From: Clostridia bacterium
GTDB taxonomy: Bacteria > Bacillota > Clostridia > DSM-8532 > SZUA-474
Direction: 5' to 3'
DNA length: 64,000 bases
Assembly: GCA_003251775.1 (NCBI GenBank)
Contig: QKEK01000156.1
Coordinates: forward strand, 24,855-88,854
Positions within the stretch are counted from its first letter, which is position 1. Each line of letters opens with the position of its first letter. A program made the translations under genes and the position numbers. Below, piece after piece: positions 553-18,349 of the stretch. The notes beneath the pieces were generated by a model. It did no database searches and was not told where the DNA came from. It was given only the letters and a program-made list of their open reading frames with translations.

Positions 553-573
553 ATAAGGATTTATATTTAACTA

Positions 574-2640: not shown

Positions 2641-2661
2641 AAAAAAATATATATAAAGGTT

Positions 2662-3711
2662 GTGTATAGACCTTTTAAAACCTTTCTTTACCTATTAATA
2701 ATCCTGTTTATTGCAAATTCCTGTAGTATTGGAGAAAAAAGAGAACTGGAACATCTGATTCTCGTCTATATGGCTGCTGATAATAATCTAAAAGATGCCG
2801 CTTTAATAGATATTAAAGAGATGGAGAGTGTAAACTATTATGGTTCCGGGATAAAAGTTATTGCACTCCTTGATACACCCTTTGGAGCAAATATTTATGA
2901 AGTCAGCTTCGATGAAAGTAAAAGCAGAGACAATATAACTTCTAAAAAAGTCGAAGCTCTTTTTCCCGGGAATTCCAAGATTAATATGGGTGATGGTGAA
3001 GTTCTTAAACAATTTATAGCATTTAGTAAACAAAAGTATCCGTCAGAGAGATACTCCTTAATAATCTGGAATCATGGAGAGGGGTTAAGAGTCTGTCAGG
3101 ATGGTGGCAGTAACGACTGGCTAACAACTGTAGAACTTGAAGCTGCTTTAAAAGATCACTTTTTTGAGTTTATTGGTTTTGATGCATGTTTTATGTCTGT
3201 TACAGATGTAGCTTATTGTCTTAAAAATAGTTCAGATATAATGGTCGCTTCCCAGGATTTTGAAGAAGAGGGTGGGTGGGACTACACATATATTTTAAAA
3301 GAATTTGCTAAGTCCCATAAAAATGGGGAAACTATGGGAAAAATATTGGTAAATTCCTACACAAATAAATACTCGGGAAAGAATCTATCTCTCTACTACT
3401 TAAGAAATATTGATAACTACATAAATGAACTTTACCTATTTTATGAAGAGCTTAAAAAACTGGATAAAGCAGTAATAAAAAGAATAATATTGGGTATTCC
3501 GCCTATAAATAACTCATTTTACGACGCAAAATCAGTTTTTTTAGCATTTTATTCCATTTTTGATACAAAATCGGTTAGCAATGAACTAGACTTATTTGTA
3601 GCTTTTGGAGGAACTTCATTGTACTTTCCGACTCAAAAACAGGACATTGATGTAGCATTTTACTCAAATAATGGACTTTTTAGGGATTATTTTGATGTTT
3701 TGTTACAATAA
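2662..3711 (+). CDS. Peptidase C11 (clostripain-family) cysteine protease, lipoprotein
   Basis: Family-typical blocks are present: LVYMAADNNL, IIWNHGEG (catalytic His) and GFDACFM (catalytic Cys). The signal peptide ends IANSC. GTG start lies 21 nt after the preceding GGDEF gene. Confidence 0.8.
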   Translation: MYRPFKTFLYLLIILFIANSCSIGEKRELEHLILVYMAADNNLKDAALIDIKEMESVNYYGSGIKVIALLDTPFGANIYEVSFDESKSRDNITSKKVEALFPGNSKINMGDGEVLKQFIAFSKQKYPSERYSLIIWNHGEGLRVCQDGGSNDWLTTVELEAALKDHFFEFIGFDACFMSVTDVAYCLKNSSDIMVASQDFEEEGGWDYTYILKEFAKSHKNGETMGKILVNSYTNKYSGKNLSLYYLRNIDNYINELYLFYEELKKLDKAVIKRIILGIPPINNSFYDAKSVFLAFYSIFDTKSVSNELDLFVAFGGTSLYFPTQKQDIDVAFYSNNGLFRDYFDVLLQ

Positions 3712-3916: not shown

Positions 3917-5260
3917 ATGAAATTTTTACACAACAGAAAAGTAATACTTTCACTTATTTTAGGGATATTAATACTGTCCCCGGCTGCTGCAGAGGGCGAC
4001 CAGGTAGCAACTATTGCTTTAGCAACTATTGCTTTAGGGCTTGATACTGTATGGGTTCTTCTTGGAGCATTTCTTGTATTTTTTATGCAAGCAGGGTTTG
4101 GAATGGTTGAGGCTGGTTTTATCCGGGCAAAAAACTCAACTAATATTTTAACAAAAAACTTTTTAGATTTCTGTATGGCATCTATTGGTTTCTTTATCTT
4201 TGGTTATGCAATCATGTTTGGAAAAGGAAATGACTTCCTTGGTTGGACAGGATTCTTTATGAAGGGTGCAGAGAGTGGTGCAGATGTTCCTCTTTTTGCT
4301 TTCTGGTTATTCCAGGCTGCTTTCTGTGGTGCTGCTGCTACAATTGTTGCCGGTGGTATGGCTGAGAGAATGAAATTTAAAGCGTATATTGTATACTCTT
4401 TCCTAATTTCTGCATTTATTTATCCAATTATTGGTCACTGGACATGGGGTGGCGGTTGGTTAGCCGGATTAAACTTTGCTGACTTTGCAGGTTCTGCTGT
4501 TGTACATACAACTGGTGGTGTTGCAGCTTTAGTAGGAACAATTATTTTAAAACCAAGAACAGGAAAATATAGACCAGACGGTTCTGTAAAAATGATATCA
4601 GGTCACAATATACCACTTGCATCACTAGGTGTTTTTATCCTGTGGTTCGGTTGGTTTGGTTTTAACGCAGGTTCAACACTTGGTGTTGGCGATGGTTCAC
4701 TTATCTCTTTAGTTGCAATTAACACTAACCTTGCTGCTGCAGCTGGTGGTATAATAGCAATGATTGTTGTATGGTCAAAAACAGGAAAACCGGATCTTTC
4801 TATGGCATTAAACGGTGCTTTAGCAGGATTGGTTGCTGTAACTGCTCCTTGTGCATTTATTAGCCCTGTTTCCGCAATTATTATTGGTGCTGTTGGTGGT
4901 TGTCTTGTTGTATTTGCATCACTTTTACTTGATAAGTTAAAAATTGATGACCCTGTAGGTGCTTTCCCGGTACATGGTGTAAATGGTATTTGGGGTACAT
5001 TGTCAATTGGTCTTTTTGGAAGAGAGTCATTAGGTTTAGCACATGATGGTCTTCTTTTTGGTGGCGGGTTTACACAATTAGGTGTTCAGGCTCTAGGTGT
5101 ATTTTCAATTGCTGCTTTTGTAGCTGTTGCAATGGGTATAATATTTATTATTATAGACAAAACAATAGGTTTAAGAGCATCAGTAGAAGAAGAGAATATT
5201 GGTCTTGATATTGGTGAACACGGTCTGGAATCTTATTCCGGTTTCCAAATAATAGAGTAG
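3917..5260 (+). CDS. amtB: Ammonium transporter (Amt family)
   Basis: The protein is about 11-TM and has Amt hallmarks: FMQAGFGMVEAG, AADFAGSAVVH-like NFADFAGSAVVHTTGG, and WFGWFGFNAGS. A P-II gene follows. Confidence 0.95.
   Translation: MKFLHNRKVILSLILGILILSPAAAEGDQVATIALATIALGLDTVWVLLGAFLVFFMQAGFGMVEAGFIRAKNSTNILTKNFLDFCMASIGFFIFGYAIMFGKGNDFLGWTGFFMKGAESGADVPLFAFWLFQAAFCGAAATIVAGGMAERMKFKAYIVYSFLISAFIYPIIGHWTWGGGWLAGLNFADFAGSAVVHTTGGVAALVGTIILKPRTGKYRPDGSVKMISGHNIPLASLGVFILWFGWFGFNAGSTLGVGDGSLISLVAINTNLAAAAGGIIAMIVVWSKTGKPDLSMALNGALAGLVAVTAPCAFISPVSAIIIGAVGGCLVVFASLLLDKLKIDDPVGAFPVHGVNGIWGTLSIGLFGRESLGLAHDGLLFGGGFTQLGVQALGVFSIAAFVAVAMGIIFIIIDKTIGLRASVEEENIGLDIGEHGLESYSGFQIIE
4006..4035 (+). 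repeat. Perfect 15-bp tandem duplication (AGCAACTATTGCTTT x2) inside the amtB 5' region
   Basis: Read directly from the sequence. It encodes ATIAL-ATIAL just after the predicted signal sequence. Confidence 0.9.
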
Positions 5261-5271
5261 GGGGGTATTAA

Positions 5272-5613
5272 ATGTTATTAATAACAGCAATGATTAAACC
5301 ACAAAGATTCGAAGAGGTGAAAAAAGCTCTTTTCGAAGCGGATATACATAAAATGACTGTTTCTTCAGTAAAAGGTTGTGGTCAACAGAAGGGATATGAA
5401 GAGTCATTTCGTGGAGTTGTTTCCGAGGTTAATTTATTAAATAAAATTAGACTTGATATTGCAGTAAATGAAGAATTTAAGCAAAAAACTATAGATGCAA
5501 TTATTAAAGGTGCAAGAACAGAGACAATCGGAGACGGTAAGATTTTTGTTACTGAGCTAAAAGAGTGTATTAGAATCAGAACTGGAGAAGAGGGTTCTGA
5601 AGCTATAGGCTAA
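5272..5613 (+). CDS. glnK: Nitrogen regulatory protein P-II (GlnK type, amtB-linked)
   Basis: The 113-aa protein aligns without gaps to the canonical P-II pattern (IKPxxxxxVxxAL...MTVxxVKGxGxQKG...GDGKIFV...IRIRTGE). It starts 11 nt after amtB. Confidence 0.9.
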
Positions 5614-5640
5614 TAATATTCTTTACCAACAATTAAAATT

Positions 5641-5676
5641 GACTTATCATGGTAACATGGTAAGTCGGTTTTTTTT
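5641..5676 (+). terminator. Rho-independent terminator-like hairpin after glnK
   Basis: An 11-bp stem (5641-5651 pairs with 5656-5666, one G-U) has a GTAA loop and is followed by GG plus T8 (5669-5676). It overlaps the probable ATG (5657) of the next gene. Confidence 0.55.
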
Positions 5677-7366
5677 CTTTATAACCTTTCTTTTTTCATT
5701 TTCACTACTGTTTTCAGAGGCAGAATCTGGAAGTATAGATGTTTTAGGTAAATTATCAGAAAAAAACAGTACAATAAAGCTGGACGGTGAGTGGGAATTT
5801 TACTGGAAGGAGTTTATCCCTCCTGTTGGAAACAGTGTAAAACCATCATCCTTAATAACAGTACCTGGTTACTGGACTGATAACAGCACCTACTCATCCT
5901 GGGGTTATGGTAGTTACAGACTTTTAATAAAAAATCTAGTCCCAGGTAAAATCTACTCCCTCTATATAGGTGATGTTTATTCAAATTATAATCTCTATAT
6001 TAATGGGAATTTAGTAAGTCAAAACGGTGTAGTCTCATCTAATCCTATGGAGAGTATACCTCAAAGTCTACCAAAAATTGTCTCCTTTACGACTAAAGCT
6101 CCCACAGTAGAACTTGTTATACATATAAGTAATTACGACTACAGGGTAAGTGGAATTTGGCGGAGCCTTATACTGGGAAGTGAAGATGGAGTAAGAAATT
6201 TCGAATTTTCCAGACTGTTTATAGATATTTTTGTAATTGGTATTTTGTTGGCAGTATCTCTTCTCCATTTTGGAATATACTTTTATAGGAAAGTGAATAG
6301 AACTCCATTTATTTTTGCTATAATCTGTTTTTCAATAATATTTCGTGTAATGAATACGGGAGAGCAGTTAATGACCCGATTTTTCCCTGGTATCTCATGG
6401 GAAATAATTCGAAAACTAGAATTTTTACCTTTTTTTATTACAACCCCACTTTTTATAGTTCTAACAACAAAACTGTTTCCTGAAGAGTCAATTAATAAAA
6501 TAAACAGATTTTTTTATATAAGTTGTTCCGGGATTCTGGGAGTATTTATTCTGGTAACCCCTATGAAATTTGCCAACTACTCAGTTCCTGTTGCTGAAGT
6601 TTTAATAGGTTTAATTGTCTTTTATCTTATTTTTATTGTTGTTAAAGCTGTTATACACAGAAGAGATTTCTCAATTTTATATACAATAACTTTTGGTGTT
6701 TTTTTTATCGCAGTTTTTAACGATATTCTTTATGCTTTAATGGTTATTCAATCCATCTACATTGGGCCTCTCTTTTTTATTATAGCAATTATTGGTCAAT
6801 CCCAAATTCAGACCAAGCAATTTATACATAGAATCTGCGAAACTGATAAAATAGAGGAGAGCAGGGACTTTTTTATGAAAATAAGTGACACTGATGCTTT
6901 AACATCCCTCTATAATTCACGATTTCTATACCGAACCCTAACTAAAAGCATAAAGGATACTCTGGATACCCGGACAAAACTATCATTAATAATGATAGAT
7001 GTAGATGATTTTAAGATGTATAACGACACTTATGGTCACACAATGGGGGATAAAGTTTTAAGAAGTATTGCAAACTCAATTAAAAGTTCCGCCAGAGATC
7101 ACGATTTAATCTGTAGATATGGGGGAGAGGAATTTACAATAATTTTACCAGATACTGATATTGAAGAAGCAAAGAAAATATCAGAAAGAATTCGACTCAA
7201 TGTGGAACATAATACTTCCTTACTGGAAAATAATTTAATAATAACAATTTCCCTTGGGGTAACAGAATTACTCCCGGAGGATAGTAGTAAATCAATAATT
7301 GAGAGGGCTGATAAGGCTCTTTATATAGCAAAAAAACAAGGTAAAAATAGGGTAGAGGTACTTTAA
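5657..7366 (+). CDS. 7TMR-DISM sensor diguanylate cyclase (extracellular DISMED2-like domain, 7 TM, GGDEF)
   Basis: An N-terminal signal and extracellular domain (IKLDGEWEFYWKEF...) are followed by seven hydrophobic helices. The C-terminus reads DALTSLYNSRF...GGEEF with an RDHD I-site. The track lists a TTG start at 5639, but the ATG at 5657 gives a plausible signal peptide. Confidence 0.85.
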   Translation: MVSRFFFFITFLFSFSLLFSEAESGSIDVLGKLSEKNSTIKLDGEWEFYWKEFIPPVGNSVKPSSLITVPGYWTDNSTYSSWGYGSYRLLIKNLVPGKIYSLYIGDVYSNYNLYINGNLVSQNGVVSSNPMESIPQSLPKIVSFTTKAPTVELVIHISNYDYRVSGIWRSLILGSEDGVRNFEFSRLFIDIFVIGILLAVSLLHFGIYFYRKVNRTPFIFAIICFSIIFRVMNTGEQLMTRFFPGISWEIIRKLEFLPFFITTPLFIVLTTKLFPEESINKINRFFYISCSGILGVFILVTPMKFANYSVPVAEVLIGLIVFYLIFIVVKAVIHRRDFSILYTITFGVFFIAVFNDILYALMVIQSIYIGPLFFIIAIIGQSQIQTKQFIHRICETDKIEESRDFFMKISDTDALTSLYNSRFLYRTLTKSIKDTLDTRTKLSLIMIDVDDFKMYNDTYGHTMGDKVLRSIANSIKSSARDHDLICRYGGEEFTIILPDTDIEEAKKISERIRLNVEHNTSLLENNLIITISLGVTELLPEDSSKSIIERADKALYIAKKQGKNRVEVL

Positions 7367-8238
7367 TGTTTAAATTAACAGAAGAATTTTTAAAAGAGAT
7401 TGGCAATTTTACTAATATTAAATGGACACCAACACTGAATCTCTTTTCCGGTTTATTAATAGACCAGCTAAAATCCCTTGCAGGATTCCATGAAGATGAG
7501 AATATGCTCACAATGGAACAGCGAGAGGAGATCGCAAAGGAGAACCAGGTTAAGCATAAAAAAGAGCGGGAAGAACTTCCATCAGACTACCCGGTAAAGT
7601 TTAGCTGGCTGGATGTTGATGGTAAAAACTATATGACCCCGGTTAAAAATCAGGGTTTTTGCAGTTCATGTGTTGCCTTTGGTTCCCTTGCAGCAGTAGA
7701 GACTATGGCTATGAAAATAAGTGGTAAAATTGAGAATCTCTCAGAAGCACAGCTCTTCTTTGGCAGTCCCGGAGACCATAACTGTAAAACAGGTTGGAAA
7801 ATAGACCCTGCTTTAAAATTTATTGAATCAACAGGGGTAGTTCCCGAATCAATGTATCCATATAACCTTGAAAACAGAAACCAAAAACTCCCTGAAAATT
7901 GGGAAAAATCGGTTACTAAAATCACCGGTTACGAAACTTTAACTACTATTACAGATATGAAGAAGTGGATTTCCACTAAGGGGCCATTAATTACAGCCAT
8001 GATGCTTAATCTGGATTTTCTTTTTTATGGTAAAGGAATTTACCACCATGTTATTGGGCCACAACTAGGTGGACACTGTGTATGCGTTGTAGGCTATAAC
8101 GACGATTATGGTGCCTGGCTCTGTAAAAACTCCTGGAGCGACCACTGGGGGGAAGAGGGCTACTTCTGGATAGAGTATGGCCAGTGTGGTATAGGTGCAG
8201 AGATGTGGGGCATAAATGGAGTATTAACACTTCCTTAA
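7366..8238 (+). CDS. Papain-family (C1A) cysteine peptidase, no signal peptide
   Basis: Motifs: NQGFCSSCVAF (Gln/Cys), GGHCVCVVGY (His) and KNSWSDHWGEEGYFWI (Asn block). The start overlaps the stop of the GGDEF gene (TAATG). Confidence 0.85.
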   Translation: MFKLTEEFLKEIGNFTNIKWTPTLNLFSGLLIDQLKSLAGFHEDENMLTMEQREEIAKENQVKHKKEREELPSDYPVKFSWLDVDGKNYMTPVKNQGFCSSCVAFGSLAAVETMAMKISGKIENLSEAQLFFGSPGDHNCKTGWKIDPALKFIESTGVVPESMYPYNLENRNQKLPENWEKSVTKITGYETLTTITDMKKWISTKGPLITAMMLNLDFLFYGKGIYHHVIGPQLGGHCVCVVGYNDDYGAWLCKNSWSDHWGEEGYFWIEYGQCGIGAEMWGINGVLTLP

Positions 8239-8880
8239 AATAAAGTAGGCAAAACCCTTATTTAAACCATTGTAAACCTGGTTATCTATAATCTCGAAAA
8301 GAAGATTAAACTCCTTACCAAATATGTCTCTAATATCATTACTATTTAAAAACCACTCATCAAGGTATAAATATGGGAAGTAGGAAGGCTCCTTAGTCTC
8401 AATATGCTCTTTCTCCCTATACCAGGCACCAATTATATATAAAGTGCTTTTATCGGCTCTTTTAGAAACATTTTTAAGGTAAGCGGCTCTTGCCTCAGGG
8501 GGTATGCTATGAAAACAGCCACAATCAATAATAATGTCATAATGGTCATCTAAGGGTAAATTGTCCTCAGTAATATCCAGATGAACAAATTTCTTACTTC
8601 CACTATACTTCCCTTTGCAAAATTCAACAGCTTTATCTGCAAAATCTGCCCCTGTGTATTCCAGGGCATAACTAGGAAATTCCTCAACAATCATGGAATT
8701 TCTACCATTCCCACAACCAATATCAAGCATTTTATAGCTGCCAATACACCTCTGCTTTAAGCAATCCCCAATAATGGAAATAAGGTTTGGATCAGTCCCT
8801 GGACTTGACCAGCCAGGCTTAAACTCCTCTTTCTCATAAATTTCATTCCAAATAGACTTATCATTAACTTTTTTACTCAT
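8224..8880 (-). CDS. Class I SAM-dependent methyltransferase
   Basis: The glycine-rich SAM motif LDIGCGNGRNS and later acidic loops are present. The preferred start is MSKKVND at 8880, because ATGAGTAA overlaps the stop of the upstream rSAM gene. The track ORF extends to 8937. Confidence 0.8.
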   Translation of the reverse strand: MSKKVNDKSIWNEIYEKEEFKPGWSSPGTDPNLISIIGDCLKQRCIGSYKMLDIGCGNGRNSMIVEEFPSYALEYTGADFADKAVEFCKGKYSGSKKFVHLDITEDNLPLDDHYDIIIDCGCFHSIPPEARAAYLKNVSKRADKSTLYIIGAWYREKEHIETKEPSYFPYLYLDEWFLNSNDIRDIFGKEFNLLFEIIDNQVYNGLNKGFAYFILRKC

Positions 8881-10666
8881 ATAAACCCCTAATTTCATCT
8901 TCAAAAGTAGGAAGAGGAATAAAATATCCATCTTCACTAATAGCTATCTTTTTATTAATAGCCCAAATTTGATCAGAACTCCCGGTAAATTCACAATTTT
9001 TAAGTAATAACCTAACTAAATTATCCGAAAGCTCACACTTTAAATCGGTTCCATCAAGACCTCTAGTGTCCAGTAAAACCACACTACCATTACCCTGCTT
9101 GCAAATGTGAAGCCTTGGTTTACTAAATTCAGACCTCCACTTATCTCTCCAGCCCTGGGCAAGCTTTATAACCCTCTCTATAACATCGGAATTTAAGGTC
9201 TCATATTTATAGTCACCACTGTGAATTATTGCAATTTTATCACTGTCTGCCCATTCTGGAAAAACTTTTCTATAAGAATCTATTGGTTTAATGTTGGAAA
9301 TACCAAATTTTTGTGGGTAATTTAGGCAAGGGCTAAATTTTACCAAAGTCATGTGGAAAGCTCCCAAAGGTGGAATTAAATGCTCTATTAATGGAATTAA
9401 CTTAACAACCCTCTCGTAATCCTCAATAGTCTCCCCGGGAACACCCCAGACCATATTCCAAAAAACAGAAATTCCGACATTTGTAGCATCTCTTAAAAAT
9501 TGAATATTCTGTTTTAAAGTATTACCCTTTTGCATTTTATTTAAAACAGTTGTAGATAAACTCTCAATTCCGGGCTGAATATCAGTAACCCCTGCATTTT
9601 TAAGCATAATTAGCTGTTGGTGGGTTAACCCGGCCTTCTCTTCGTAATAAAATTTCCAACCATCTTTTAAAGTGGCAATTTTTTGCAAAAAACCGCTAAA
9701 AAAAGAGTAAGGCATAATTAAATCTGCCATATGCAAGTATTTAATACCCCACTTTTTAGCACTTTCAAACTCCCTAAGAAGCCTATCCTCACTCTTTTGT
9801 CTATACTTTACTCTATCAGAAGTCCCGCAAAAGCAGCATTGACTCTTCTCTCCCCACCAGCAACCCCGGCTACTCTCCATAGCAAGGCTTAAACCACCCT
9901 TATTTGCAAATTTCTCTGGTAGCCACCTCTCAAGCTGGGTAAAAAAATCAGAATAATCTAAATCGGGTATCCCATCCAAATCCATAACAGGCTCGCTATA
10001 AATAACCCGCTCTTTTGGTAAAACCCCACTGTTCAAACCATGTAAAAAATTGACAAAACTAACTTCACTCTCACCGGAAAAAACATAATCCAGAAACTCC
10101 CTATCGGGATCAAGGGAGACAATACCTATAGCAGAATCCCCCTCGCAATTAAATCCGCCTGTAAAAGTAACAACATTAGGGTTACTGCTCTTAATAGCCC
10201 TAAGTATAGAAACCCCTGCATTAATCTGCTCAAAACTGCTGGTAACCCCAACAACGTTGTAAGGGATATCCCTAAACCTCTCATATAGTTCACTAATCCA
10301 CTCCCCGGCATAATTAGCTGTTTTTATTAAATCTTTAACAGGAATATCACTATCTTCAGGAAAAAACCGTACAGGGCTCTTATTACACTTATACAAAGTG
10401 AAATAATCATACAAATCCTTTCCAAATTGCTCAGGAACACTATCTCCCCAGGCTGTTTTAGCAAATGGCCTCTCTCCTAGCAGAAAATAGTTCATTTTAC
10501 AGTAATCATTGTATAAATCCCCAATTCTGGCAGCAAACTCCATATTTGCATATAGAATATCAACATTATATCCAGCTTCTTTACCGCAAGCCTGTAAAGT
10601 GTGCATAGCTAGGGATTGAATCTCGCAGGATCCAAAAGGTGGTACAATCAATAAAACATTAATCAC
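8873..10666 (-). CDS. B12-binding-domain radical SAM protein resembling RiPP-maturation radical SAM C-methyltransferases (TIGR03975-like)
   Basis: The N-terminus is a Rossmann-like B12-type domain (VLLIVPPF...ILYANMEFAARIG). The Cys cluster reads SSRGCWWGEKSQCCFCG...YRQKS. Length is about 600 aa. The GTG start overlaps the upstream stop (GTGATTAA). Confidence 0.75.
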   Translation of the reverse strand: MINVLLIVPPFGSCEIQSLAMHTLQACGKEAGYNVDILYANMEFAARIGDLYNDYCKMNYFLLGERPFAKTAWGDSVPEQFGKDLYDYFTLYKCNKSPVRFFPEDSDIPVKDLIKTANYAGEWISELYERFRDIPYNVVGVTSSFEQINAGVSILRAIKSSNPNVVTFTGGFNCEGDSAIGIVSLDPDREFLDYVFSGESEVSFVNFLHGLNSGVLPKERVIYSEPVMDLDGIPDLDYSDFFTQLERWLPEKFANKGGLSLAMESSRGCWWGEKSQCCFCGTSDRVKYRQKSEDRLLREFESAKKWGIKYLHMADLIMPYSFFSGFLQKIATLKDGWKFYYEEKAGLTHQQLIMLKNAGVTDIQPGIESLSTTVLNKMQKGNTLKQNIQFLRDATNVGISVFWNMVWGVPGETIEDYERVVKLIPLIEHLIPPLGAFHMTLVKFSPCLNYPQKFGISNIKPIDSYRKVFPEWADSDKIAIIHSGDYKYETLNSDVIERVIKLAQGWRDKWRSEFSKPRLHICKQGNGSVVLLDTRGLDGTDLKCELSDNLVRLLLKNCEFTGSSDQIWAINKKIAISEDGYFIPLPTFEDEIRGLYE

Positions 10667-11726
10667 AAATTAGCTCCAAAACTTTTTGACAATAAAATTT
10701 ATCATTAGACCCAACATTATGGTACTCATCGGATGGGCGTAATTTTCCACTTTCTCTACACTTACACAAAAATCTGCAACCAGAACACAAAGGACTCTCA
10801 CTTTCAGTATTTTCTATATATAGGGATGATGATAAAATACTCTCCAAAACCCCTTTTGTGTAACTTCCCAAGTTAATATTGCAGGAATGGTTTAGTGTTA
10901 TATTTAAATTTTGCAGTACAACAATTTTACCAGCTCTGGAAATCTCAGGGGATGGAGTTAGCCATTTTAGTCCTAACTCTTTTGCAACAACTGTGGTCAG
11001 TGAATTTTCCAGAATAAAACTGTTATATCCACCAAGTGTTAAAAAACCTGCAATTTTAACCAGTGCTATTAAATCTTCTGGTTCAAGTTTTAAATCTGAA
11101 ACATTATAATATTCACTCTCAATACCCCTAAGCTGTATAAAAACAACTGCTTTAATACCCGGGTAGGAATTATATAAATCACTGGTAAATTTAGGTAGGG
11201 AATTCAAATTACTTTTACTAACAACACAATAAACTGTTACAGATAGTCCAAATTCCAGACCGATTTTTAAACCTTCTGTAGCTAATTTGTAGGACCCTGC
11301 ACCCCTTACACTATCATGCTCATCTTTATACCCATTAATTGTGCAGCTATACTCAATTATTCCATTATATTTAGCTAGTTTACTGCAAACTTCTTTTGTA
11401 ATCAGGTGCCCGTTAGTATTTAAAAAAATATATGTATAACCCATATTAACAGCCAATTCTAAAAAATCATACAAATGTGGCCACAATAGTGGTTCACCAC
11501 CGGTTATACTTAATTGGGTATATCCTAACTCTTTGCCTTCTTTTGCAATCTCAATTGCAGTATCCAGGTTAATATGGGCTAGTTTTTCTGTGTTTTCGTG
11601 GGCAAAACAATTTTTACATTTTAAATTACACTTTGTTGTTACTTCTATTGATATCATTAAAAAAGGATAACCCATTTTTTGAAATAAATAAATTAAATAT
11701 GAATTTTGACAACTCAACAATTTCAT
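10659..11726 (-). CDS. Radical SAM / SPASM-twitch domain protein
   Basis: It has the CX3CX2C motif (TTKCNLKCKNC), a GGEPLL SAM-binding motif, and a C-terminal Cys cluster CSGCRFLCKC...C. The start is uncertain, with alternative ATGs at 11675 and 11654. There is no room for an N-terminal RRE domain. Confidence 0.8.
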   Translation of the reverse strand: MKLLSCQNSYLIYLFQKMGYPFLMISIEVTTKCNLKCKNCFAHENTEKLAHINLDTAIEIAKEGKELGYTQLSITGGEPLLWPHLYDFLELAVNMGYTYIFLNTNGHLITKEVCSKLAKYNGIIEYSCTINGYKDEHDSVRGAGSYKLATEGLKIGLEFGLSVTVYCVVSKSNLNSLPKFTSDLYNSYPGIKAVVFIQLRGIESEYYNVSDLKLEPEDLIALVKIAGFLTLGGYNSFILENSLTTVVAKELGLKWLTPSPEISRAGKIVVLQNLNITLNHSCNINLGSYTKGVLESILSSSLYIENTESESPLCSGCRFLCKCRESGKLRPSDEYHNVGSNDKFYCQKVLELICD

Positions 11727-11807
11727 AGTTGCTAAATAAAGATGGTTACTAAGAAAATGGAAGGTCGTAAAGATAATGACAAAATTACGGACTGGTTCAA
11801 AACCTTA

Positions 11808-12911
11808 TTAAATGGATTTCTTAAGTAATTCAAGCAGCTTAAGGTTTATAAATATTTTTTCTCTTCCAATTTTGTACTGCTTTAATATTCCTACATCCTC
11901 TAATTGCACTAAATATTTAGATGCAGCTTTTCTTTCTATTCCAAGAACATTTACTAAAAACTCAATTTTACAGTATGGATGCACAAATAATTCTTCTACA
12001 AGTTCTTTAGAGTATATTTTAGGTAGAGATTTTTTGACATATTCAACGGTCTCATCTAGCAAGTCTTTTATTTTTACTATTTTATTAATTGTTTCCTTTG
12101 CAACAATTTCAACACCTTTCAGTATATAAATTATCCAATCTTCCCAGTTTTCATTTATTGTAACTTCTCTTAATAATCGATAATATTCCGATTTATTTTT
12201 TATTATATATGAACTTAAATATAATATTGGTATATCTAAATATTCTTTAAGAATCAGAAATAATATATTTATAATTCGACCTGTTCTCCCATTCCCGTCA
12301 TAAAATGGATGAATTGATTCAAACTGATAGTGAATAATTGCCATTTTAGATAGTGAATCACTATCATTATTTAAATATGCTACTAAATTTCCTAATAATT
12401 GATTAATAATTTCTTCACTTTGAGGAGGTGTATAAACAACTTCTCCTGTTTGGTCATTTATTAATTTTGTTCCTGTTGTTTTTCTAATTCCTGCATCATT
12501 TTTTAACAATAATATCTGTATATCTATAATATCCTTTACAGAAAGAATTTTTCTTTCTGTTATTCTTTTAAATCCAGCATGTAGAGCTTCTCGATAATAT
12601 AACACCTCTTTTATGGCAGGGTTATTAATATTTTGATTTCCAGAAATAGCTTTATATAATTCATCCTGGGTTGTTATAATATTTTCAATCTCTGAACTAT
12701 CTTTAGCTTCTTGTAAAATTATTGCATTAATCAGTATTGATTGATTAGGAATTATTTTTGCTATTCCTTTCAATTCTGCTATTGCTGAACGGCTTTTATT
12801 TTCCTGTTTTAGTATATTTATTGTTTCTATTTTATCATTTACTGGGGGTAATAATGGTAAATTATTGTATGGTATTTTTGGATTAAATGTATTCATGCGT
12901 ACCATTATCAC
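11808..12911 (-). CDS. Fic family protein (AMPylase-type; Fic_N plus Fic plus C-terminal wHTH-like)
   Basis: The Fic motif HPFYDGNGRTGR lies at 12276-12311. An N-terminal inhibitory-helix-like motif SSEIEN, fitting (S/T)xxxE(G/N), lies at 12681-12698. The start may be the ATG at 12896. Confidence 0.9.
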   Translation of the reverse strand: MIMVRMNTFNPKIPYNNLPLLPPVNDKIETINILKQENKSRSAIAELKGIAKIIPNQSILINAIILQEAKDSSEIENIITTQDELYKAISGNQNINNPAIKEVLYYREALHAGFKRITERKILSVKDIIDIQILLLKNDAGIRKTTGTKLINDQTGEVVYTPPQSEEIINQLLGNLVAYLNNDSDSLSKMAIIHYQFESIHPFYDGNGRTGRIINILFLILKEYLDIPILYLSSYIIKNKSEYYRLLREVTINENWEDWIIYILKGVEIVAKETINKIVKIKDLLDETVEYVKKSLPKIYSKELVEELFVHPYCKIEFLVNVLGIERKAASKYLVQLEDVGILKQYKIGREKIFINLKLLELLKKSI

Positions 12912-13118
12912 ACTTTTTTGTACATTTGAATACGTATATGTGTCTATTATTTAATTATTGGTACATATTTTCCTAATATGCTCCTATTTTTTATATTTGA
13001 TCCCAAATTCCATTTAACATTAATAGTTCTGCTTTAGGTATTATGTACTATCTCAGGGCTTTTTTATTTATAAATAGCTATTATGTATTATGTTGACAAT
13101 ATATAATGGTAATTATGT

Positions 13119-13147
13119 TTGACAAGTAGCTCAACCACTAATATTAT
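13119..13147 (+). promoter_or_regulatory. Near-consensus sigma70 promoter for the small Nif11-like gene
   Basis: TTGACA (13119-13124), a 17-nt spacer, then TATTAT (13142-13147). A strong RBS AAGGAAGG follows (about 13166-13173) before the ATG at 13178. A second TTGACA lies at 13093-13098. Confidence 0.5.
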
Positions 13148-13177
13148 ATTAACTATGTTTATTTAAAAGGAAGGTAT

Positions 13178-13384
13178 ATGAAAAATTTTATTGATTTTAT
13201 TGTAGACGCTGCAAAAGACAGTACATTAGGTGAAGAACTAAAGAAACATCTAGACTCTTCTGACCACAAAACAATTGCATCATGGCTTGGTGACAAAGGT
13301 TACGATGTTCAAGAAGGTGATGTGAAAAAGATTGTTGATAATAAAGAAGAGATCAAAACAGGTAGTTTAGGGTACGCATACTAA
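13178..13384 (+). CDS. Small acidic Nif11-domain-like protein or candidate leader-type peptide (68 aa)
   Basis: MKNFIDFIVDAAKDSTLGEELKK...IASWLGDKGYDVQEGDV matches the Nif11 / Nif11-leader pattern (xxFxxxVxxDxxLxxxLK...AxxxGFxxxxxDL). It has a strong promoter and RBS and ends ...KTGSLGYAY. Confidence 0.55.
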   Translation: MKNFIDFIVDAAKDSTLGEELKKHLDSSDHKTIASWLGDKGYDVQEGDVKKIVDNKEEIKTGSLGYAY

Positions 13385-13409
13385 TTATCTTTATGGAGAA
13401 ATTTTGCTT

Positions 13410-15479
13410 ATGAAGTGTGTAAAAAATCTATTATTATTTCTGCTATTGTTGATAGTAAGTTTCCTTTATTCAGAGGTAATTGAGGAAAACGATTATATTA
13501 CGGAAATAAAATCTTTTGATAAACCTCATGAATTAATTTCTCCATGGATAATCCAATCTGTTGCTGATAATGTTACGATGGATGATACTATAAAAAATCC
13601 TTCATATGTTGTGACACCCTTTTCTCCTTGGCAGTTTAGTGTTCCTGAATTAGCTAATTATTATGGTAAATCATTATACACATTAACATTTAAAATTTCT
13701 AATGAAGATATAATTAATGATAATGGTTTATATATCCCTGTTTCTTATAGTGGGTATGAATTATTTTTAAATAAGAGATTAATACATAAAACATATAATT
13801 TAAGTGATTTATCACAAAAAGTGGTAATTATTCCAAATGGACTTCTTACTTTAGGGGTTAATGAAATTGGAATAGTTTCTTCGACAGCAAGTGGTTGGGG
13901 TGGCTTTGGAGGTGGTTCACAGATTAAAATTGGAAAATATGATAATTTATTAAAAAATTATATAATAGATGTAATTATTAAAATTAGTATTAGTGCAATA
14001 TGTTTCTTCTTGAGTATATATTTTATTTTCTTTTATATGTTTAGAAGAGGTGAAAAATATAATATCTTTTTTTCTGGTTTCTGCTTGGCTGTAGGAATGT
14101 TTATAATGGGTTATTATGGGTTTTGGTATTATTTCTTTGACTACCCTTGGGCATATTGGGTTTTAACATTTATTGGTGGTATAAACATGTACCTTATGCC
14201 AATATTGTTTATTAGTTCATTCTATGGTGACAGGTTAACTCTTTTTTCTAAAATATTAGCTGGTTTTTATTGCTTCCTATCTATGTTTGTTATAGTAGAG
14301 TATCTGATTACAGGTCAGATATTCTATTTTAACAAATACTTATATTTAGGCTTTAACTTTAGTTATATTATTCTTGTTGTGTATTTAAACATTATGAGTA
14401 TTAAAGCTGTTAGAAAAAAACAAATGTATTCCAAACTAATGTTAATAAGTATTATTTTGTTATCTGTTACATTTGTGTATAGTATGCTTTGTTTTGCTGT
14501 TATAATTATAAAACCACCATTAATAGGTGAAGGCTTCTTCCTTATGGCTGTGGTATATTCTATTGTTCTTGCTAGAAGATATGCTGATACTCATGTTATG
14601 CTTGAGAATTCATTAACTGTTAATATGGAATTAAACAGGACTCTGGAAGTTAGGGTTGCAGAGAGAACTAAAGAGTTAAATGATCAGAAACAGGAGATGG
14701 AAGATAGTATAGTTTATGCATCCAGGATTCAGACAACAATGCTGCCTTTTAACAATGTATTATCTAAACATTTTTCAGACTTTTTTACATATTGGAGACC
14801 AAAAGATATTGTTGGTGGAGACTCTTACTGGTTCCATGAGACAGAAGATGGATTTATATATGCAGTATTAGATTGTACAGGACATGGGGTACCTGGAGCT
14901 GTATTATCAACAACAGCAAATAATATGCTGGACACAATAGTCACCTACAAGAATAGTGATGATCCTGCAAAAATATTGCAGGAATTAAATATTACATTTA
15001 AAAGAATACTAAGCCAGGAGAACCCATTCGATATTGCAGATGATGGGCTTGATATTGGTCTATGCTGCTATTCATACAGTACAAATGTTATGAAGTATGC
15101 AGGGTCTAAAATCAGGTTACACTATGTTAAACCCGGGGATGCAGAGCTATCGGAAGTTCGAGGGAATAGTCAGGGAATTGGTTATAAAAGATCAAAAGCA
15201 AATTACGCCTATACCAATCATACAGTACCTGTAACCCAGGATACTATGTTTTTTATGACAACAGACGGATATCTTGATCAGCATGGTGGTCAGAGAGATT
15301 TTGGATTTGGTTGGACCAGATACAAAGATGTTCTATTCGACAACAGAAAGAGAAGCATGGAAGAGCAAAAAAACGCTTTAACTATTGCAATAAAGGAATT
15401 TCAAGGCGATAATGAACAGAGAGATGATATTACAGTTGTCGGATTTAAAATAAAAGTGAGACCAGAGGCAAAAAAGTAA
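13410..15479 (+). CDS. 7TMR-DISM sensor PP2C/SpoIIE-type serine phosphatase (SiaA-like)
   Basis: A signal peptide and extracellular domain are followed by 7 TM helices and a coiled coil. The PP2C blocks are VGGDSYWF, DCTGHGVPGA, TDGYLDQ and DDITVVGF. A DUF1987/SiaC-like gene follows. Confidence 0.8.
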   Translation: MKCVKNLLLFLLLLIVSFLYSEVIEENDYITEIKSFDKPHELISPWIIQSVADNVTMDDTIKNPSYVVTPFSPWQFSVPELANYYGKSLYTLTFKISNEDIINDNGLYIPVSYSGYELFLNKRLIHKTYNLSDLSQKVVIIPNGLLTLGVNEIGIVSSTASGWGGFGGGSQIKIGKYDNLLKNYIIDVIIKISISAICFFLSIYFIFFYMFRRGEKYNIFFSGFCLAVGMFIMGYYGFWYYFFDYPWAYWVLTFIGGINMYLMPILFISSFYGDRLTLFSKILAGFYCFLSMFVIVEYLITGQIFYFNKYLYLGFNFSYIILVVYLNIMSIKAVRKKQMYSKLMLISIILLSVTFVYSMLCFAVIIIKPPLIGEGFFLMAVVYSIVLARRYADTHVMLENSLTVNMELNRTLEVRVAERTKELNDQKQEMEDSIVYASRIQTTMLPFNNVLSKHFSDFFTYWRPKDIVGGDSYWFHETEDGFIYAVLDCTGHGVPGAVLSTTANNMLDTIVTYKNSDDPAKILQELNITFKRILSQENPFDIADDGLDIGLCCYSYSTNVMKYAGSKIRLHYVKPGDAELSEVRGNSQGIGYKRSKANYAYTNHTVPVTQDTMFFMTTDGYLDQHGGQRDFGFGWTRYKDVLFDNRKRSMEEQKNALTIAIKEFQGDNEQRDDITVVGFKIKVRPEAKK

Positions 15480-15850
15480 TGATTGATATACAAGCAGGAA
15501 AGTCAACACCAAGAGTTTTATTAGATAATCATAGTGGAGTATATTTAATTGAGGGACAGTCATACCCTGAGAATTCCAGTGCATTTTATGAACCAATAAT
15601 TGATTGGTTTAAGAAATTTATACAAGTCTCAAAAGAAGAGATTAATTTAAAAGTAAAGTTAATATATTTAAATACAAGTAGTACAAAAGCAATGTTTTAT
15701 TTGTTTGATCTGTTGGATGAATCTTATAAGAAAGGTTCAAAAATTAGAATTGAATGGTACTATGATGTAGAAAATGAGATGGCCCACGATACAGGCATCG
15801 ATCTATTGGAAGATTTAACACTTCCTTACAAAATTATTCCTGTTTTGTAA
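15479..15850 (+). CDS. SiaC-like (DUF1987) regulatory phosphoprotein
   Basis: TPRVLLD..GVYLIEGQSYPENSSAFYEPIIDWF and YLNTSSTK match the DUF1987 pattern. The start overlaps the phosphatase stop (TAATG). Confidence 0.75.
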   Translation: MIDIQAGKSTPRVLLDNHSGVYLIEGQSYPENSSAFYEPIIDWFKKFIQVSKEEINLKVKLIYLNTSSTKAMFYLFDLLDESYKKGSKIRIEWYYDVENEMAHDTGIDLLEDLTLPYKIIPVL

Positions 15851-16391
15851 AATATTCTGTTTTTATTGAGAAAAAAGTCTCTCCAGAAGGGAGAGTGTCG
15901 AAATTGTATTCAACATTATCTGCTTTTCTGCTTAACTCAATTAACCCAAGGCTTGCACCTTTGCTAAGTTCATTTAGATTGTCGTTTCTTAACTGATATT
16001 TAAAAAGCTTGTTTAATTCATCCCTGGATTTACCTTTTAGTTCTTCAAGTCGCTCTTTTAAAACAGTTTCGTGCTCCTTGTCTACAGGGTTTCCACTAAT
16101 TATAAAAATGTTCCCATTCTCAATACCTGTAAGTATTAGACCATGGCTCATTCTTGTTCCATCCTCTTCCTTAATAGTATTGGAAGAGTAGTGTAAAATA
16201 TTTTGTGCTTGTTCAATAAAAAGGCTCAAGTAACGGCTGTTCATTCGAAGTGCAGAGTAAGATGACAGTTTTTTGTTCATAACCAAACTTATCTCTTCGA
16301 TCATCTCCTGTAAAAAAGGTCCCTGGTAACTTAAAACAATCCCATCTTTATTAAAAATATTATAATATTTGGAAACATCTTCAATCTTCAT
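15834..16391 (-). CDS. SiaB-like small protein kinase
   Basis: The N-terminal block GIVLSYQGPFLQEMIEEIS fits the SiaB pattern ILxxxxGPxxxxLIEEIG. It is 185 aa and overlaps the upstream GGDEF gene by 11 nt. Confidence 0.65.
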   Translation of the reverse strand: MKIEDVSKYYNIFNKDGIVLSYQGPFLQEMIEEISLVMNKKLSSYSALRMNSRYLSLFIEQAQNILHYSSNTIKEEDGTRMSHGLILTGIENGNIFIISGNPVDKEHETVLKERLEELKGKSRDELNKLFKYQLRNDNLNELSKGASLGLIELSRKADNVEYNFDTLPSGETFFSIKTEYFTKQE

Positions 16392-17139
16392 AACTATTTA
16401 CCATATTCCTTCCACCAATTTTACTCTTATATAGCTCTTTATCTGCAAGTTCAAGACATTTGTTAATTCCATATTCCGGATTATATCCACAAACTCCCAA
16501 AGATATTGTAACATTAATTTGGCAATCGTTAAATGACATTTTTAAATTCTCTATTTTTTCTCTCATTTTTTCAGCCAAAATCTTGGCACCTTCTATATTG
16601 GTGTCAGGCAGTGCAAGTAAAAACTCCTCTCCTCCCCATCTTGCTATATGGTCGAAGGCTCGTAATGATGTGCAAAGTGTATCGGAAATTTCTTTCAGAA
16701 CTAGATCTCCGGTTAAATGACCATAGGAGTCATTAATTCGTTTAAAGTGATCAATATCAATAATAATTATTGAAAATGCATCCCCAAATCTTTTGTTCCG
16801 AGTAATTAATTCTGTAAGAAAATTATTAATTCCTCGTCTGTTATGTAATCCTGTTAAAGAGTCTGTAAGAGCAAGTTTTTTAAGCTTTTCCTCTGCTTGA
16901 GTAAGTTTAATTACTTTTTCCTCAACAATTTCGTTAGTTTCAATAAGTTTTTTTTGATTATAATCAGCCATATTGATCAGTTTTTGAGTCTGTTTTAAAA
17001 GTTTCTCATAATTTGACGCTAAATATCGATACTCTTTTCTTAGATGCGAGATATCTAGGTCTAGTTTATTAGAAATTTTATCAGCATGGTTTAAAATCTC
17101 AATTTCAGTTGTAAATATTCCATCTTCCACTATAGCCAT
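16381..17139 (-). CDS. Cytoplasmic coiled-coil GGDEF diguanylate cyclase (SiaD-like)
   Basis: It has DSLTGLHNRR...GGEEF with an RAFD I-site and an N-terminal coiled coil. It is the first gene of a two-gene operon with the SiaB-like gene. Confidence 0.8.
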   Translation of the reverse strand: MAIVEDGIFTTEIEILNHADKISNKLDLDISHLRKEYRYLASNYEKLLKQTQKLINMADYNQKKLIETNEIVEEKVIKLTQAEEKLKKLALTDSLTGLHNRRGINNFLTELITRNKRFGDAFSIIIIDIDHFKRINDSYGHLTGDLVLKEISDTLCTSLRAFDHIARWGGEEFLLALPDTNIEGAKILAEKMREKIENLKMSFNDCQINVTISLGVCGYNPEYGINKCLELADKELYKSKIGGRNMVNSYED

Positions 17140-17197
17140 TACTCAATTTTATTTCCAATAAGGTAAAAGGTAAATCTTTTTTTTAAAATTATTAATT

Positions 17198-18349
17198 TTA
17201 GTTAAGAATATTGCTAAATATCTTATCAAAAAGTTCAATACCCTTTAATAACTCATCATTCCCAGTATCAAGATCCGGAAGACTAAAGAGTTTATCTATA
17301 AACATCCCGGCGCTACCGTAGGCTATAGCCTTGTCTTTGAGTGGACTTAAACAGACTTCGCAGTTAGCAGCAGTAGGGTAAGACCAGTTTTTTTGAATAT
17401 TATTTTTAAAACTTTTAATAACATACTCCTGGTATTTCTGAAGTTCCCCTGAGATAATCACCCTTGTAAGGTTTAAACTGTTAACAAGAAGTGCAATATT
17501 TCTGCCTAATTCATCAATTAAAAGAGGCATAACTTCATTGTTTAAATAACTGGTTTTAAACTGACTCTCAGAACCATTTTCCCAATCGATACTTCTAAAC
17601 TCACCGGCAGAATAATCTGCTCCATGGTGAACCTGCTCTCTAATAACTATACCTGTACCTATTGCAAGGCTTAAATTGTCATTTTTTTTAGCCTGTACAT
17701 TTCTTAACTCACTCTGGATAAATATAAAATCGCTGGCTCTATCCAGGTTCTGAATTAACTCAGAATAGCAGCCGCAGTTTGCGTCGTTTTCAATTAAAAT
17801 AGGAATATTTGTTTTATCTTTTACAACATCGTAAAAATTAAAAGGTTCAAAAATTTCCAGAGGATAGGATTGATTTATTATACCATCTTTTGGATTAATA
17901 ATTCCTGATAAAGCCACACCAATACCTATTAAAGGTAAGTTTGTAGAGTTTATCTTACCCTGAAGTGCCCCTAATATGTAGAAAAATGCTTCATCTATGT
18001 TCATATTTTGGAAATTAAGGTTATCCTGATACTCAAAGACAATATCACCATGGAGGTTTAAACCAACAGCTTGATAAGTTCTTGTCTGAATTTCTATACC
18101 TAATACCAGGCCATAGTTTTTATTGATTTCCAAAAATATCGGCTTCCTACCACCCTGAGGGCTTGCATCCCCTTCATTTAAAATTTCAATTATATTTTTT
18201 TCCTGAAGTGTTGAAACTATTTTAGTAACAGTAGATTTGTCTAAATTTAAAATTCTTGAAATATCTATACGGGACAACTTTCTGTTTTGCCACAATATTT
18301 TTAAAACTCTGGAGGCATTTATTGTATTAACTTTATTTAACTTTGCCAT
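17198..18349 (-). CDS. ROK-family transcriptional regulator (N-terminal wHTH plus ROK sugar-kinase fold)
   Basis: The wHTH segment reads ISRILNLDKSTVTKIVSTL. The ROK-type glycine motifs are GIEI...GVALSGII and ENDANCG. Confidence 0.85.
   Translation of the reverse strand: MAKLNKVNTINASRVLKILWQNRKLSRIDISRILNLDKSTVTKIVSTLQEKNIIEILNEGDASPQGGRKPIFLEINKNYGLVLGIEIQTRTYQAVGLNLHGDIVFEYQDNLNFQNMNIDEAFFYILGALQGKINSTNLPLIGIGVALSGIINPKDGIINQSYPLEIFEPFNFYDVVKDKTNIPILIENDANCGCYSELIQNLDRASDFIFIQSELRNVQAKKNDNLSLAIGTGIVIREQVHHGADYSAGEFRSIDWENGSESQFKTSYLNNEVMPLLIDELGRNIALLVNSLNLTRVIISGELQKYQEYVIKSFKNNIQKNWSYPTAANCEVCLSPLKDKAIAYGSAGMFIDKLFSLPDLDTGNDELLKGIELFDKIFSNILN

Follow-up and report, generated by a model that had tools for sequence, protein, structure and literature searches.

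A predicted Sia-type partner switch for cyclic di-GMP in a spirochaete lineage, genetically linked to a tyrosine-ended peptide and its putative radical-SAM maturation genes

The window analysed here is a stretch of 64,000 nucleotides (nt) of contig QKEK01000156.1 (assembly GCA_003251775.1, deposited as a Clostridia bacterium), and it holds, between positions 13178 and 17139, genes for a peptide of 68 amino acids (aa) and for four proteins resembling SiaA, SiaB, SiaC and SiaD of the Pseudomonas aeruginosa partner-switch system for cyclic di-GMP (c-di-GMP) (Table 1). An earlier reading made from the DNA letters alone (the sequence-only reading) had placed five open reading frames (ORFs) here, all of which were located at the coordinates in Table 1, and the motifs it had quoted, SYPENSSAFYEP and NTSSTK, were found in the translation. 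The stop codon of the siaA-like gene overlaps the start of the siaC-like gene by 1 nt, the stop of the siaD-like gene overlaps the start of the siaB-like gene by 11 nt, and the 3' ends of the siaC-like and siaB-like genes converge and share 17 nt (15834-15850), both stop codons included, as had been reported; these overlaps together are consistent with two translationally coupled units. On the 5' side of the peptide gene lies a maturation block (7366-11726) encoding a small radical S-adenosylmethionine (SAM) enzyme, a second radical-SAM enzyme of the TIGR03975 family, a SAM-dependent methyltransferase and a papain-like peptidase. The peptide gene had been described as leading the phosphatase operon, and that position is right, but it is no mere operon leader, being a precursor-like partner of this block. 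The unit of interest spans about 9.8 kb (7366-17139) and not 4 kb, and its main interest is the coupling of a peptide to a receptor over the layout of the genes.

Table 1. Genes and promoter candidate of the peptide-Sia locus, with positions in the window.
Feature	Position	Strand	Remarks
Peptide gene, 68 aa	13178-13384	+	Precursor-like; Nif11-like helical body and disordered tail ending ...LGYAY-COOH
SiaA-like receptor phosphatase, 691 aa	13404-15479	+	Start codon may be the ATG at 13410
SiaC-like switch protein (DUF1987), 123 aa	15479-15850	+	PF09345
SiaB-family protein kinase (DUF6272), 185 aa	15834-16391	-	NF038262
SiaD-like diguanylate cyclase, 252 aa	16381-17139	-	PF00990; NF038266 is the best NCBIfam model
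Papain-family (Peptidase_C1) cysteine protease	7366-8238	+	PF00112, 139.5 bits
Class I SAM-dependent methyltransferase	8224-8937	-	Methyltransf_25/12/11 matches
Large radical-SAM enzyme, 597 aa, TIGR03975 family	8873-10666	-	435.7 bits against a cutoff of 281.85
Small radical-SAM enzyme, 355 aa	10659-11726	-	PF04055, 77 bits
Sigma-70-like promoter candidate, TTGACA-17-TATTAT	13119-13147	+	Consensus match at 11 of 12 positions

The proteins were compared with Pfam and NCBIfam profiles and with chains of the Protein Data Bank (PDB), and hhalign, AlphaFold (AF2) models, Foldseek and hydropathy were used in addition. The nearest full-length relatives (38-53% identity) were from spirochaetes, among them Thiospirochaeta perfilievii, Spirochaeta isovalerica and several metagenome-assembled genomes (MAGs) of Spirochaetaceae and Spirochaetales, and by sequence similarity this version of the module is placed in a spirochaete (low-GC) lineage. 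The four Sia functions that the sequence-only reading had named were recognisable through PF09345 for the switch protein, NF038262 for the kinase, SpoIIE and a match to PDB entry 6k4e for the phosphatase and GGDEF and SiaD profiles for the cyclase; profile searches for SiaB, SiaC, SpoIIE and 7TMR-DISM_7TM were all positive, with the 185-aa and 123-aa proteins matched by SiaB- and SiaC-family models respectively.

The SiaC-like protein scored 126.4 bits against PF09345 (cutoff 24.5) and 84 bits against PDB chain 6kko_C, in an alignment that sets its LIYLNTSSTK opposite LLYLNTSSIK of P. aeruginosa SiaC. That segment of the DUF1987 fold, where helix alpha2 begins, holds the phosphorylation site T68 of the Pseudomonas protein (PMC7647112), and so T66 of the window protein is its counterpart; the triad N67/T68/S69, which is required for SiaD binding (PMC8457831), is kept as N65-T66-S67. 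The SiaB-like protein scored 142.6 bits against the SiaB-family kinase model NF038262 (cutoff 85) and 104 bits against DUF6272, and it matched PDB chain 6kko_A (E = 1e-12) with IEQAQN opposite IEMTQN, the motif that holds the predicted catalytic glutamate E61 of P. aeruginosa SiaB (PMC7647112). In the receptor phosphatase SpoIIE (PF07228) scored 66.3 bits, residues 406-682 matched the PP2C domain of P. aeruginosa SiaA (PDB 6k4e_A) with E = 1.3e-52, and the PP2C metal-binding motifs GGD, DCTGHG, TDG and RDD were invariant in 18 members of the spirochaete clade.

The cyclase scored 152 bits against the GGDEF profile PF00990, and has a GGEEF active site, an RxxD I-site (RAFD) and a helical stalk of about 90 aa. 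Its top NCBIfam model was that of SiaD (NF038266, 188.7 bits, under the equivalog cutoff of 290), and when a profile of nine clade cyclases was compared with all PDB chains, P. aeruginosa SiaD (7e6g_A) came second with 177.5 bits, in the alignment that reaches furthest into the stalk, from profile position 18. Alignment of the stalk as a single sequence was uninformative, but the clade profile resolved the docking segment, with KVARISDRYQ of SiaD opposite the clade consensus kLiklsDntq (window residues K53, L54, A58, D59 and Q62); the SiaC-contact residues of the SiaD stalk are those given in PMC8457831. All four proteins fall under the NCBIfam equivalog cutoffs, SiaC with 122 against 150 (NF038265; not an equivalog by the NCBI rule), SiaB with 82 against 225 (NF038264) and SiaA with 244 bits against 700 (NF038263), this last match covering only profile positions 384-657, in the C-terminal half. 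Taken on sequence and structure matches, a Sia-type partner switch is very probably present at the locus, with a mechanism well supported by homology.

The receptor phosphatase is laid out as a signal or anchor segment, a periplasmic domain of ~165 aa, a block of seven transmembrane (TM) helices (residues ~190-385), a coiled-coil linker and the SiaA-type PP2C domain (~440-685), and the hydropathy profile shows an anchor at the N-terminus, then ~165 aa outside the cytoplasm and about seven TM segments between residues 190 and 385. It had been proposed that a DISMED2-like domain and a 7TM block replace the Pseudomonas type of sensor here, and the replacement and the 7TM block both stand, with 7TMR-DISM_7TM (PF07695) matching residues 197-391 at 35.3 bits (cutoff 29). 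Membership of DISMED2 was dropped, as the periplasmic domain gave zero Pfam matches to PF07696 even at E <= 1, and when the N-termini of the clade were set against homologues that bear DISMED2, hhalign gave a probability of 1.4%. An AF2 model of this domain, made from 18 clade sequences (mean confidence score, pLDDT, of 86.9), was matched best by Foldseek, among PDB entries, to GH2 beta-glucuronidases and galacturonidases, in their N-terminal jelly rolls, which bind sugars (E = 2e-6, TM-score ~0.6). At the level of fold the modelled domain is a galactose-binding-like, GH2_N-like jelly roll, and since the sequence profiles fail while the model is a jelly roll, the term DISMED2-like is tenable for the fold class only and the jelly-roll label is used here. 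SiaA-type PP2C domains in public data are fused to numerous sensors, among them dCache, SBP_bac_3, HAMP, PAS, TPR, Y_Y_Y propellers, YfiR and DISMED2 + 7TM, so that a swap of the SiaA sensor is by itself unsurprising.

The gene order peptide > A > C >, convergent with < B < D, is common to all the spirochaete relatives, and thus the split layout described by the sequence-only reading is kept throughout the clade. The siaC/siaB junction varies among them from -25 to +16 nt, some having a gap, which means that the 17-nt overlap is not conserved while the convergent layout is; the overlap itself is incidental. A scan of a genome collection with a SiaA-like alignment matched on PP2C motifs and listed other phyla instead of the spirochaete clade; the 80 SiaA-type PP2C loci among the matches listed served as a control for the layout. 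Where these loci held SiaB and SiaC the genes ran in the same direction as A (A>B>C(>D) or B>C>A(>D)), with two exceptions of the form A> C< B<, and the A>C> <B<D split was seen in none of the 80 listed. One relative (locus L002) has, a few kb away from the main module, another and different set of partner-switch-like genes (13688-17950, minus strand), all of them co-directional: a GGDEF protein, a methyltransferase, a SpoIIE phosphatase (477 aa), a kinase of DUF6272/HATPase type and a protein of 115 aa.

The peptide gene is real and conserved. It lies directly 5' of the receptor gene in every spirochaete relative, and the window peptide is 71-72% identical to the peptides of two relatives, compared to about 49% for the adjoining receptors. 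Alignment gave M1, K2, F4, D6, K13, W36, G41, Y42, G65 and Y68 as invariant, the 29 clade peptides having a common MK.F.D...K...W...GY core and a tail of the form [KN]-[LIV]-G-(hydrophobic/aromatic)-x(0-2)-Y-COOH, with neither a conserved cysteine nor a Gly-Gly motif. In the AF2 model residues 4-61 are helical and the tail (62-68) is disordered, with pLDDT below 50. The earlier description of the peptide as Nif11-like holds for its helical body, but not at the level of the family models, for which the matches are sub-threshold (TIGR03798 17.6 bits against 32.3; PF07862 14.1 against 23.8).

A profile search of 1.84 billion representatives found 212 members of the peptide family, and a C-terminal tyrosine was present in 136 of the 145 small library representatives listed. 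A scan of metagenomes with the peptide alignment gave no matches, the degenerate patterns being too weak, and so a scan anchored on the small radical-SAM enzyme was used, which returned 80 loci, 49 of them with at least 600 nt on either side. A peptide-family ORF was found in 39 of these 49, and within 1 kb in 37, and every complete peptide adjacent to the radical-SAM gene ended in tyrosine (56/56). This frequent adjacency (37/49) and the constancy of the terminal tyrosine mark peptide and small radical-SAM enzyme as a coherent two-gene cassette. Stretches matching the peptide profile also occur in long proteins outside the window, a library protein of 2027 aa (P0274) having nine separate ones (profile positions ~16-46), which implies a large protein of repeated Nif11-like helical units; the pattern recurs in three or four further long proteins (P0381, P0383, P0388 and P0408).

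The small radical-SAM enzyme has the CxxxCxxC motif and four conserved C-terminal cysteines (CX2CX5C...C; C314, C317, C323 and C346), enough for one auxiliary cluster and short of the full seven-cysteine SPASM motif, and PF13186 gave no match. No NCBIfam or Pfam family model matched it at cutoff, the best curated models scoring 60-95 bits against cutoffs of 265-650, and its own family numbered 408 matches at E <= 1e-8. Its sequence places it outside every named family, as a radical-SAM enzyme that likely has a single auxiliary cluster. The invariant C-terminal tyrosine of the peptide is the obvious candidate for the site of modification. The nearest chemical precedent known to us is MftC, the mycofactocin maturase, acting on the C-terminal tyrosine of MftA; the MftC model scored 61-80 bits against the small enzyme (cutoff 265). 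A variant cassette without a 7TMR-DISM receptor was seen in one further locus (L094, 5568-15025), consisting of the small radical-SAM enzyme, an 86-aa tyrosine-ended peptide (...HNRDY), a Peptidase_C25, a second radical-SAM enzyme of 429 aa and a PNPOx-like protein; it adjoins a 1148-aa adenylate/guanylate cyclase-AAA-TPR protein, a hint of coupling to a different nucleotide-signalling output.

Nine loci were informative on the maturation block, their peptide gene being intact and their flanks long enough: the window, L001 (T. perfilievii), L002, L083 (S. isovalerica), L084, L086/L087, L088, L089 and L092. Genes for the small and large radical-SAM enzymes and the methyltransferase were present in all nine, with the methyltransferase kept downstream of the large enzyme in each (9/9), and a homologue of the C1 peptidase adjoined the methyltransferase in seven. 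The block is 5' of the peptide gene in most loci, and downstream of the cyclase gene in S. isovalerica and in a Spirochaetales MAG (L086/L087), where the peptide gene remains directly 5' of the receptor gene, away from its maturases; as the block is on the other side in these two genomes, the linkage of module and block has outlived rearrangement. A second copy of the module in the MAG that carries L002 (L090, 887-4430) is without the block. Its A, C and B genes are intact, its peptide gene is a pseudogene with in-frame stops ('M-INFIVEASH...*') and its cyclase is a 15-bit remnant, and the genes flanking it (GntR, GH43, ABC permeases) show synteny with the locus of T. perfilievii.

Among the block's products, the large radical-SAM enzyme belongs to TIGR03975, a family of radical-SAM C-methyltransferases in the maturation of peptides made by the ribosome and modified after translation (RiPPs), and it is duplicated in L089. 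The papain-like protease is a candidate for the peptidase that releases the leader or tail of the peptide, and has no obvious signal peptide. Which codon starts the methyltransferase gene is uncertain, an ATG some 19 codons further in being likelier, and the true start of the small radical-SAM gene is probably near 11657 (MISIEVTT). Two of the relatives have more than one peptide gene: L002 (6934-7984) has two, each encoding 68 aa, with identities of 37% and 71% to the peptide of the window, around a 174-aa Peptidase_C1 fragment, and L089 (7170-9967) has two with the extra TIGR03975-like paralogue between them.

The same pairing of peptide and sensor was found with another output. In L093 (Spirochaetes bacterium RBG_16_49_21), L099, L101, L103 and L107 the peptide gene lies directly 5' of a co-directional receptor gene, with small gaps or overlaps, and the small radical-SAM gene adjoins the pair. 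These receptors have a jelly roll, a 7TMR-DISM 7TM block and HisKA, HATPase, REC and SpoIIE domains, their sensor module being homologous to that of the window receptor (E = 8e-18, 29% identity across 300 aa); genes for SiaB or SiaC were not found near them. A triad of peptide, radical-SAM enzyme and sensor is thus wired to two outputs, and no other observation here speaks so strongly for the matured peptide and the sensor acting as a pair.

The reading favoured on balance is that of a Sia-type partner-switch module for c-di-GMP, genetically coupled to a maturation cassette for a tyrosine-ended peptide, with the receptor reading the matured product. Going by homology with the Pseudomonas proteins, T66 of the SiaC-like protein would be phosphorylated by the SiaB-like kinase and stripped of its phosphate by the receptor's PP2C domain, in opposition to the kinase, the unphosphorylated SiaC-like protein would dock on the helical stalk of the GGEEF cyclase and turn c-di-GMP synthesis on, and the RxxD I-site would provide product inhibition of the cyclase. 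The other steps are suggested by the gene neighbourhoods. The peptide would be co-transcribed with the receptor and the SiaC-like gene, the small radical-SAM enzyme may modify it at or near the invariant C-terminal tyrosine, the TIGR03975 C-methyltransferase and the SAM methyltransferase may tailor it further, and the papain-like peptidase may free a small C-terminal product. This product would then be the cue for the jelly-roll/7TM sensor, making an autoinducer-like circuit with precursor and receptor in one operon and c-di-GMP as its output.

The promoter of Table 1, a candidate by consensus match only, is followed by a strong ribosome-binding site, AAAGGAAGG, both being 5' of the peptide gene. 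Alignment of upstream regions showed the TTGACA box recurring at a similar position 5' of the peptide gene in several relatives, and a conserved operator was considered here and rejected, since this box alone recurs. A scan of the whole window with Rfam returned zero matches, and so it is without a c-di-GMP riboswitch. A terminator between the convergent operons was also rejected: the sole candidate, a GC-rich hairpin with a T-run (15869-15895, minus strand) near the 3' end of the siaB-like gene and ~35 nt ahead of its stop, lies in conserved coding sequence, coincides with the conserved PSGETFFS codons and is probably a by-product of them. A gene for a ROK-family/MarR-HTH regulator (17198-18349, minus strand), which is not kept in relatives, lies 58 nt 5' of the siaD-like gene in the same direction, which makes read-through into the latter possible.

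Other neighbours in the window include a further large GGDEF protein (~571-2637, plus strand) and a second 7TMR-DISM protein (5639-7366, plus strand; 7TM domain 59.9 bits, plus GGDEF), for which relatives have no equivalent at that position. The gene of the latter is probably co-transcribed with that of the papain-like peptidase because its stop overlaps the peptidase start by 1 nt; the idea that its product is a paralogue of the SiaA-like sensor was rejected, the similarity of the sensors being insignificant (E = 0.086). A SoFic-like Fic/adenylyltransferase gene (11808-12911, minus strand; NF046030 439 bits against a cutoff of 550), the product of which has Fic_N, Fic and SoFic-like_C domains, lies between the small radical-SAM and peptide genes in the window and in no related locus. 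As it is missing from relatives and the stretch around it (12001-14000) has the lowest GC of the window (26.6%), it is suggested to be a recent insertion. An ammonium transporter and P-II gene pair (3917-5613, plus strand), upstream of the cluster, is syntenic with positions 1430-3108 of the T. perfilievii locus L001, which supports a chromosomal context common to that species and the window organism.

Several observations weigh against a peptide ligand for the receptor. The link between the two would be drawn from gene neighbourhood alone; no exporter was found in the cluster and the peptide and the C1 peptidase are without signal peptides, so that a product which stays inside the cell or diffuses through the membrane is as plausible as one that is secreted; and a carbohydrate-binding-like jelly roll, such as the model suggests, would suit a cue from sugars or the envelope no less than a peptide-derived one. 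The peptide is also under the Nif11-leader cutoffs and without the Gly-Gly cleavage motif, the small radical-SAM enzyme matches no curated maturase family, and in the window the Fic gene stands between the maturation block and the peptide gene. In the wider family a 7TMR-DISM receptor was nearby in only 3 of the 16 radical-SAM-peptide loci with at least 3.5 kb of flank, and the general role of the cassette is therefore not necessarily receptor signalling. On such grounds the module could be reading an external carbohydrate or envelope cue through its 7TMR-DISM sensor while the peptide and radical-SAM block is an ordinary RiPP cluster (e.g. antimicrobial) that shares its location alone: the closest structural matches of the periplasmic domain are sugar-binding domains of GH2 enzymes, a receptor is missing near most cassettes of the wider family, and no exporter or immunity genes join the two halves. 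We consider this quite unlikely, as the linkage is found in all nine informative loci and also across rearrangement, the peptide gene stays by the receptor and not by its maturases, peptide and cyclase are both decayed where the maturases are missing (L090), and adjacency of peptide and receptor arose independently with a different output domain.

The two halves may instead be linked in another direction or another place, with the modified peptide (or a tyrosine-derived small molecule or cofactor) acting on the receptor inside the cell, or with the Sia module sensing or regulating production of the peptide product, as feedback or self-protection, in place of using it as a signal between cells. 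The missing signal peptide and exporter would suit this, the peptide shows, over its full length, the conservation of a folded domain, and an invariant C-terminal tyrosine beside an auxiliary-cluster radical-SAM enzyme recalls cofactor precursors, by general analogy with MftA/MftC. It nevertheless seems doubtful to us, because the peptide co-varies with the extracytoplasmic/7TM sensor module and not with the cytoplasmic outputs, and because autoinducers classically have precursor and receptor encoded in a single operon, as in agrBDCA. That the convergent overlap is itself regulatory, with colliding transcription or antisense RNA at the siaC/siaB junction setting the ratio of phosphatase arm to kinase arm, is very improbable. 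The A-C / D-B arrangement is conserved in the clade with a junction (-25 to +16 nt) that has no room for separate terminators, and it is missing from the 80 other SiaA-type loci listed, but the length of the overlap is not conserved, there is a gap in some relatives and the only terminator-like hairpin is explained by siaB coding sequence; regulation of this kind could, besides, coexist with any of the other explanations. Returning to the coupled module, we regard a functional link between the Sia module and the peptide cassette as probably real, and the matured peptide as the receptor's ligand as a tentative proposal that rests on gene neighbourhoods. It is possible, and we suggest it with reserve, that these loci represent a new signalling system in which an uncurated radical-SAM family matures a tyrosine-ended peptide with a Nif11-like leader into a signal read by a matching jelly-roll/7TMR-DISM sensor, and that in one spirochaete clade this sensor drives a SiaABCD-type switch, so that a self-made RiPP-type autoinducer sets c-di-GMP.

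To our knowledge SiaABCD has so far been a Pseudomonas story with a poorly defined input signal, and the ligands of 7TMR-DISM receptors are largely unknown. The present locus encodes a predicted Sia switch in Spirochaetota with another sensor, for which the candidate input is an encoded peptide with linked maturation genes. Public databases already list all proteins of the module, with generic names, and SiaB and SiaC families beyond Pseudomonas are recognised by NCBIfam and Pfam. No description of the split spirochaete layout, nor of a coupling of the peptide/radical-SAM family to 7TMR-DISM receptors and a Sia-type c-di-GMP switch, was found in the literature outside subscription-only papers, and the same holds for the family of tyrosine-ended peptide and small radical-SAM enzyme, which subscription RiPP genome-mining papers may hold. 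If the link is true, it joins radical-SAM RiPP biosynthesis, 7TMR-DISM receptors and partner-switch control of c-di-GMP, which are not joined in the searchable literature, and would give a defined class of ligand for 7TMR-DISM receptors and a function for at least 200 'orphan' cassettes of radical-SAM enzyme and peptide. Independently of the signalling idea, the tyrosine-ended Nif11-like peptide and the small radical-SAM enzyme form a coherent uncurated family with at least 212 peptide representatives and no Pfam or NCBIfam model.

Compared to SiaABCD of P. aeruginosa (PA0172-PA0169), the window module has the same four functions and conservation at the level of residues (the N-T-S site, IE..QN, the K-[VL]...[SA]-D..Q docking motif and the I-site). 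Its genes, however, form a peptide-A-C unit convergent with D-B, unlike the single co-directional operon of Pseudomonas, its cyclase has a 14-residue insertion in the stalk, S82 is alanine, and the module is tied to a peptide/radical-SAM cassette; we know of no such cassette linked to a Sia module in Pseudomonas. The sensors differ also, that of P. aeruginosa SiaA consisting of two TM helices and HAMP (PMC7647112) and that of the window receptor of the jelly roll and the 7TMR-DISM 7TM block. DUF1987 is widespread, according to an eLife paper. With 7TMR-DISM receptors of the LadS/RetS type and 7TMR-DISM PP2C proteins the window receptor shares the extracytoplasmic beta-sandwich, the seven TM helices and a cytoplasmic signalling domain, and database homologues with DISMED2, 7TM and SpoIIE exist; it differs in that its extracytoplasmic domain is outside PF07696, its output is a SiaA-type PP2C predicted to act on a DUF1987 partner, and a conserved precursor-like peptide gene precedes it.

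The peptide resembles Nif11-derived precursors (N11P, TIGR03798), which occur with TIGR03975 maturases, in its helical Nif11-like N-terminal region with weak profile matches and in the adjacent TIGR03975 enzyme. In canonical precursors of this kind (PMC2887384) a leader of ~69 aa, with GG at its end, precedes a core of ~23 aa, whereas the window peptide is below the N11P cutoff, is without Gly-Gly and without a PCAT/ABC exporter nearby, and has a core of ~4-7 residues with an invariant terminal tyrosine in place of a variable core of ~23 aa. By analogy from general knowledge, MftA/MftC, and more loosely PqqA/PqqE, share with the cassette a small precursor with an invariant C-terminal tyrosine (often G-x-Y), a radical-SAM enzyme with an auxiliary Fe-S cluster and a dedicated peptidase, but the window has no MftB, MftD, MftE or MftF, its leader is Nif11-like and helical, and its small radical-SAM enzyme has four C-terminal cysteines only. 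The arrangement is also analogous, though not homologous, to the staphylococcal agrBDCA system, in which the precursor gene is likewise co-transcribed with that of a polytopic receptor and lies near a gene for a processing enzyme of cysteine-protease type; the window receptor, in contrast, is a phosphatase and not a histidine kinase, with a predicted c-di-GMP output through a partner switch and with radical-SAM enzymes as the putative means of maturation.

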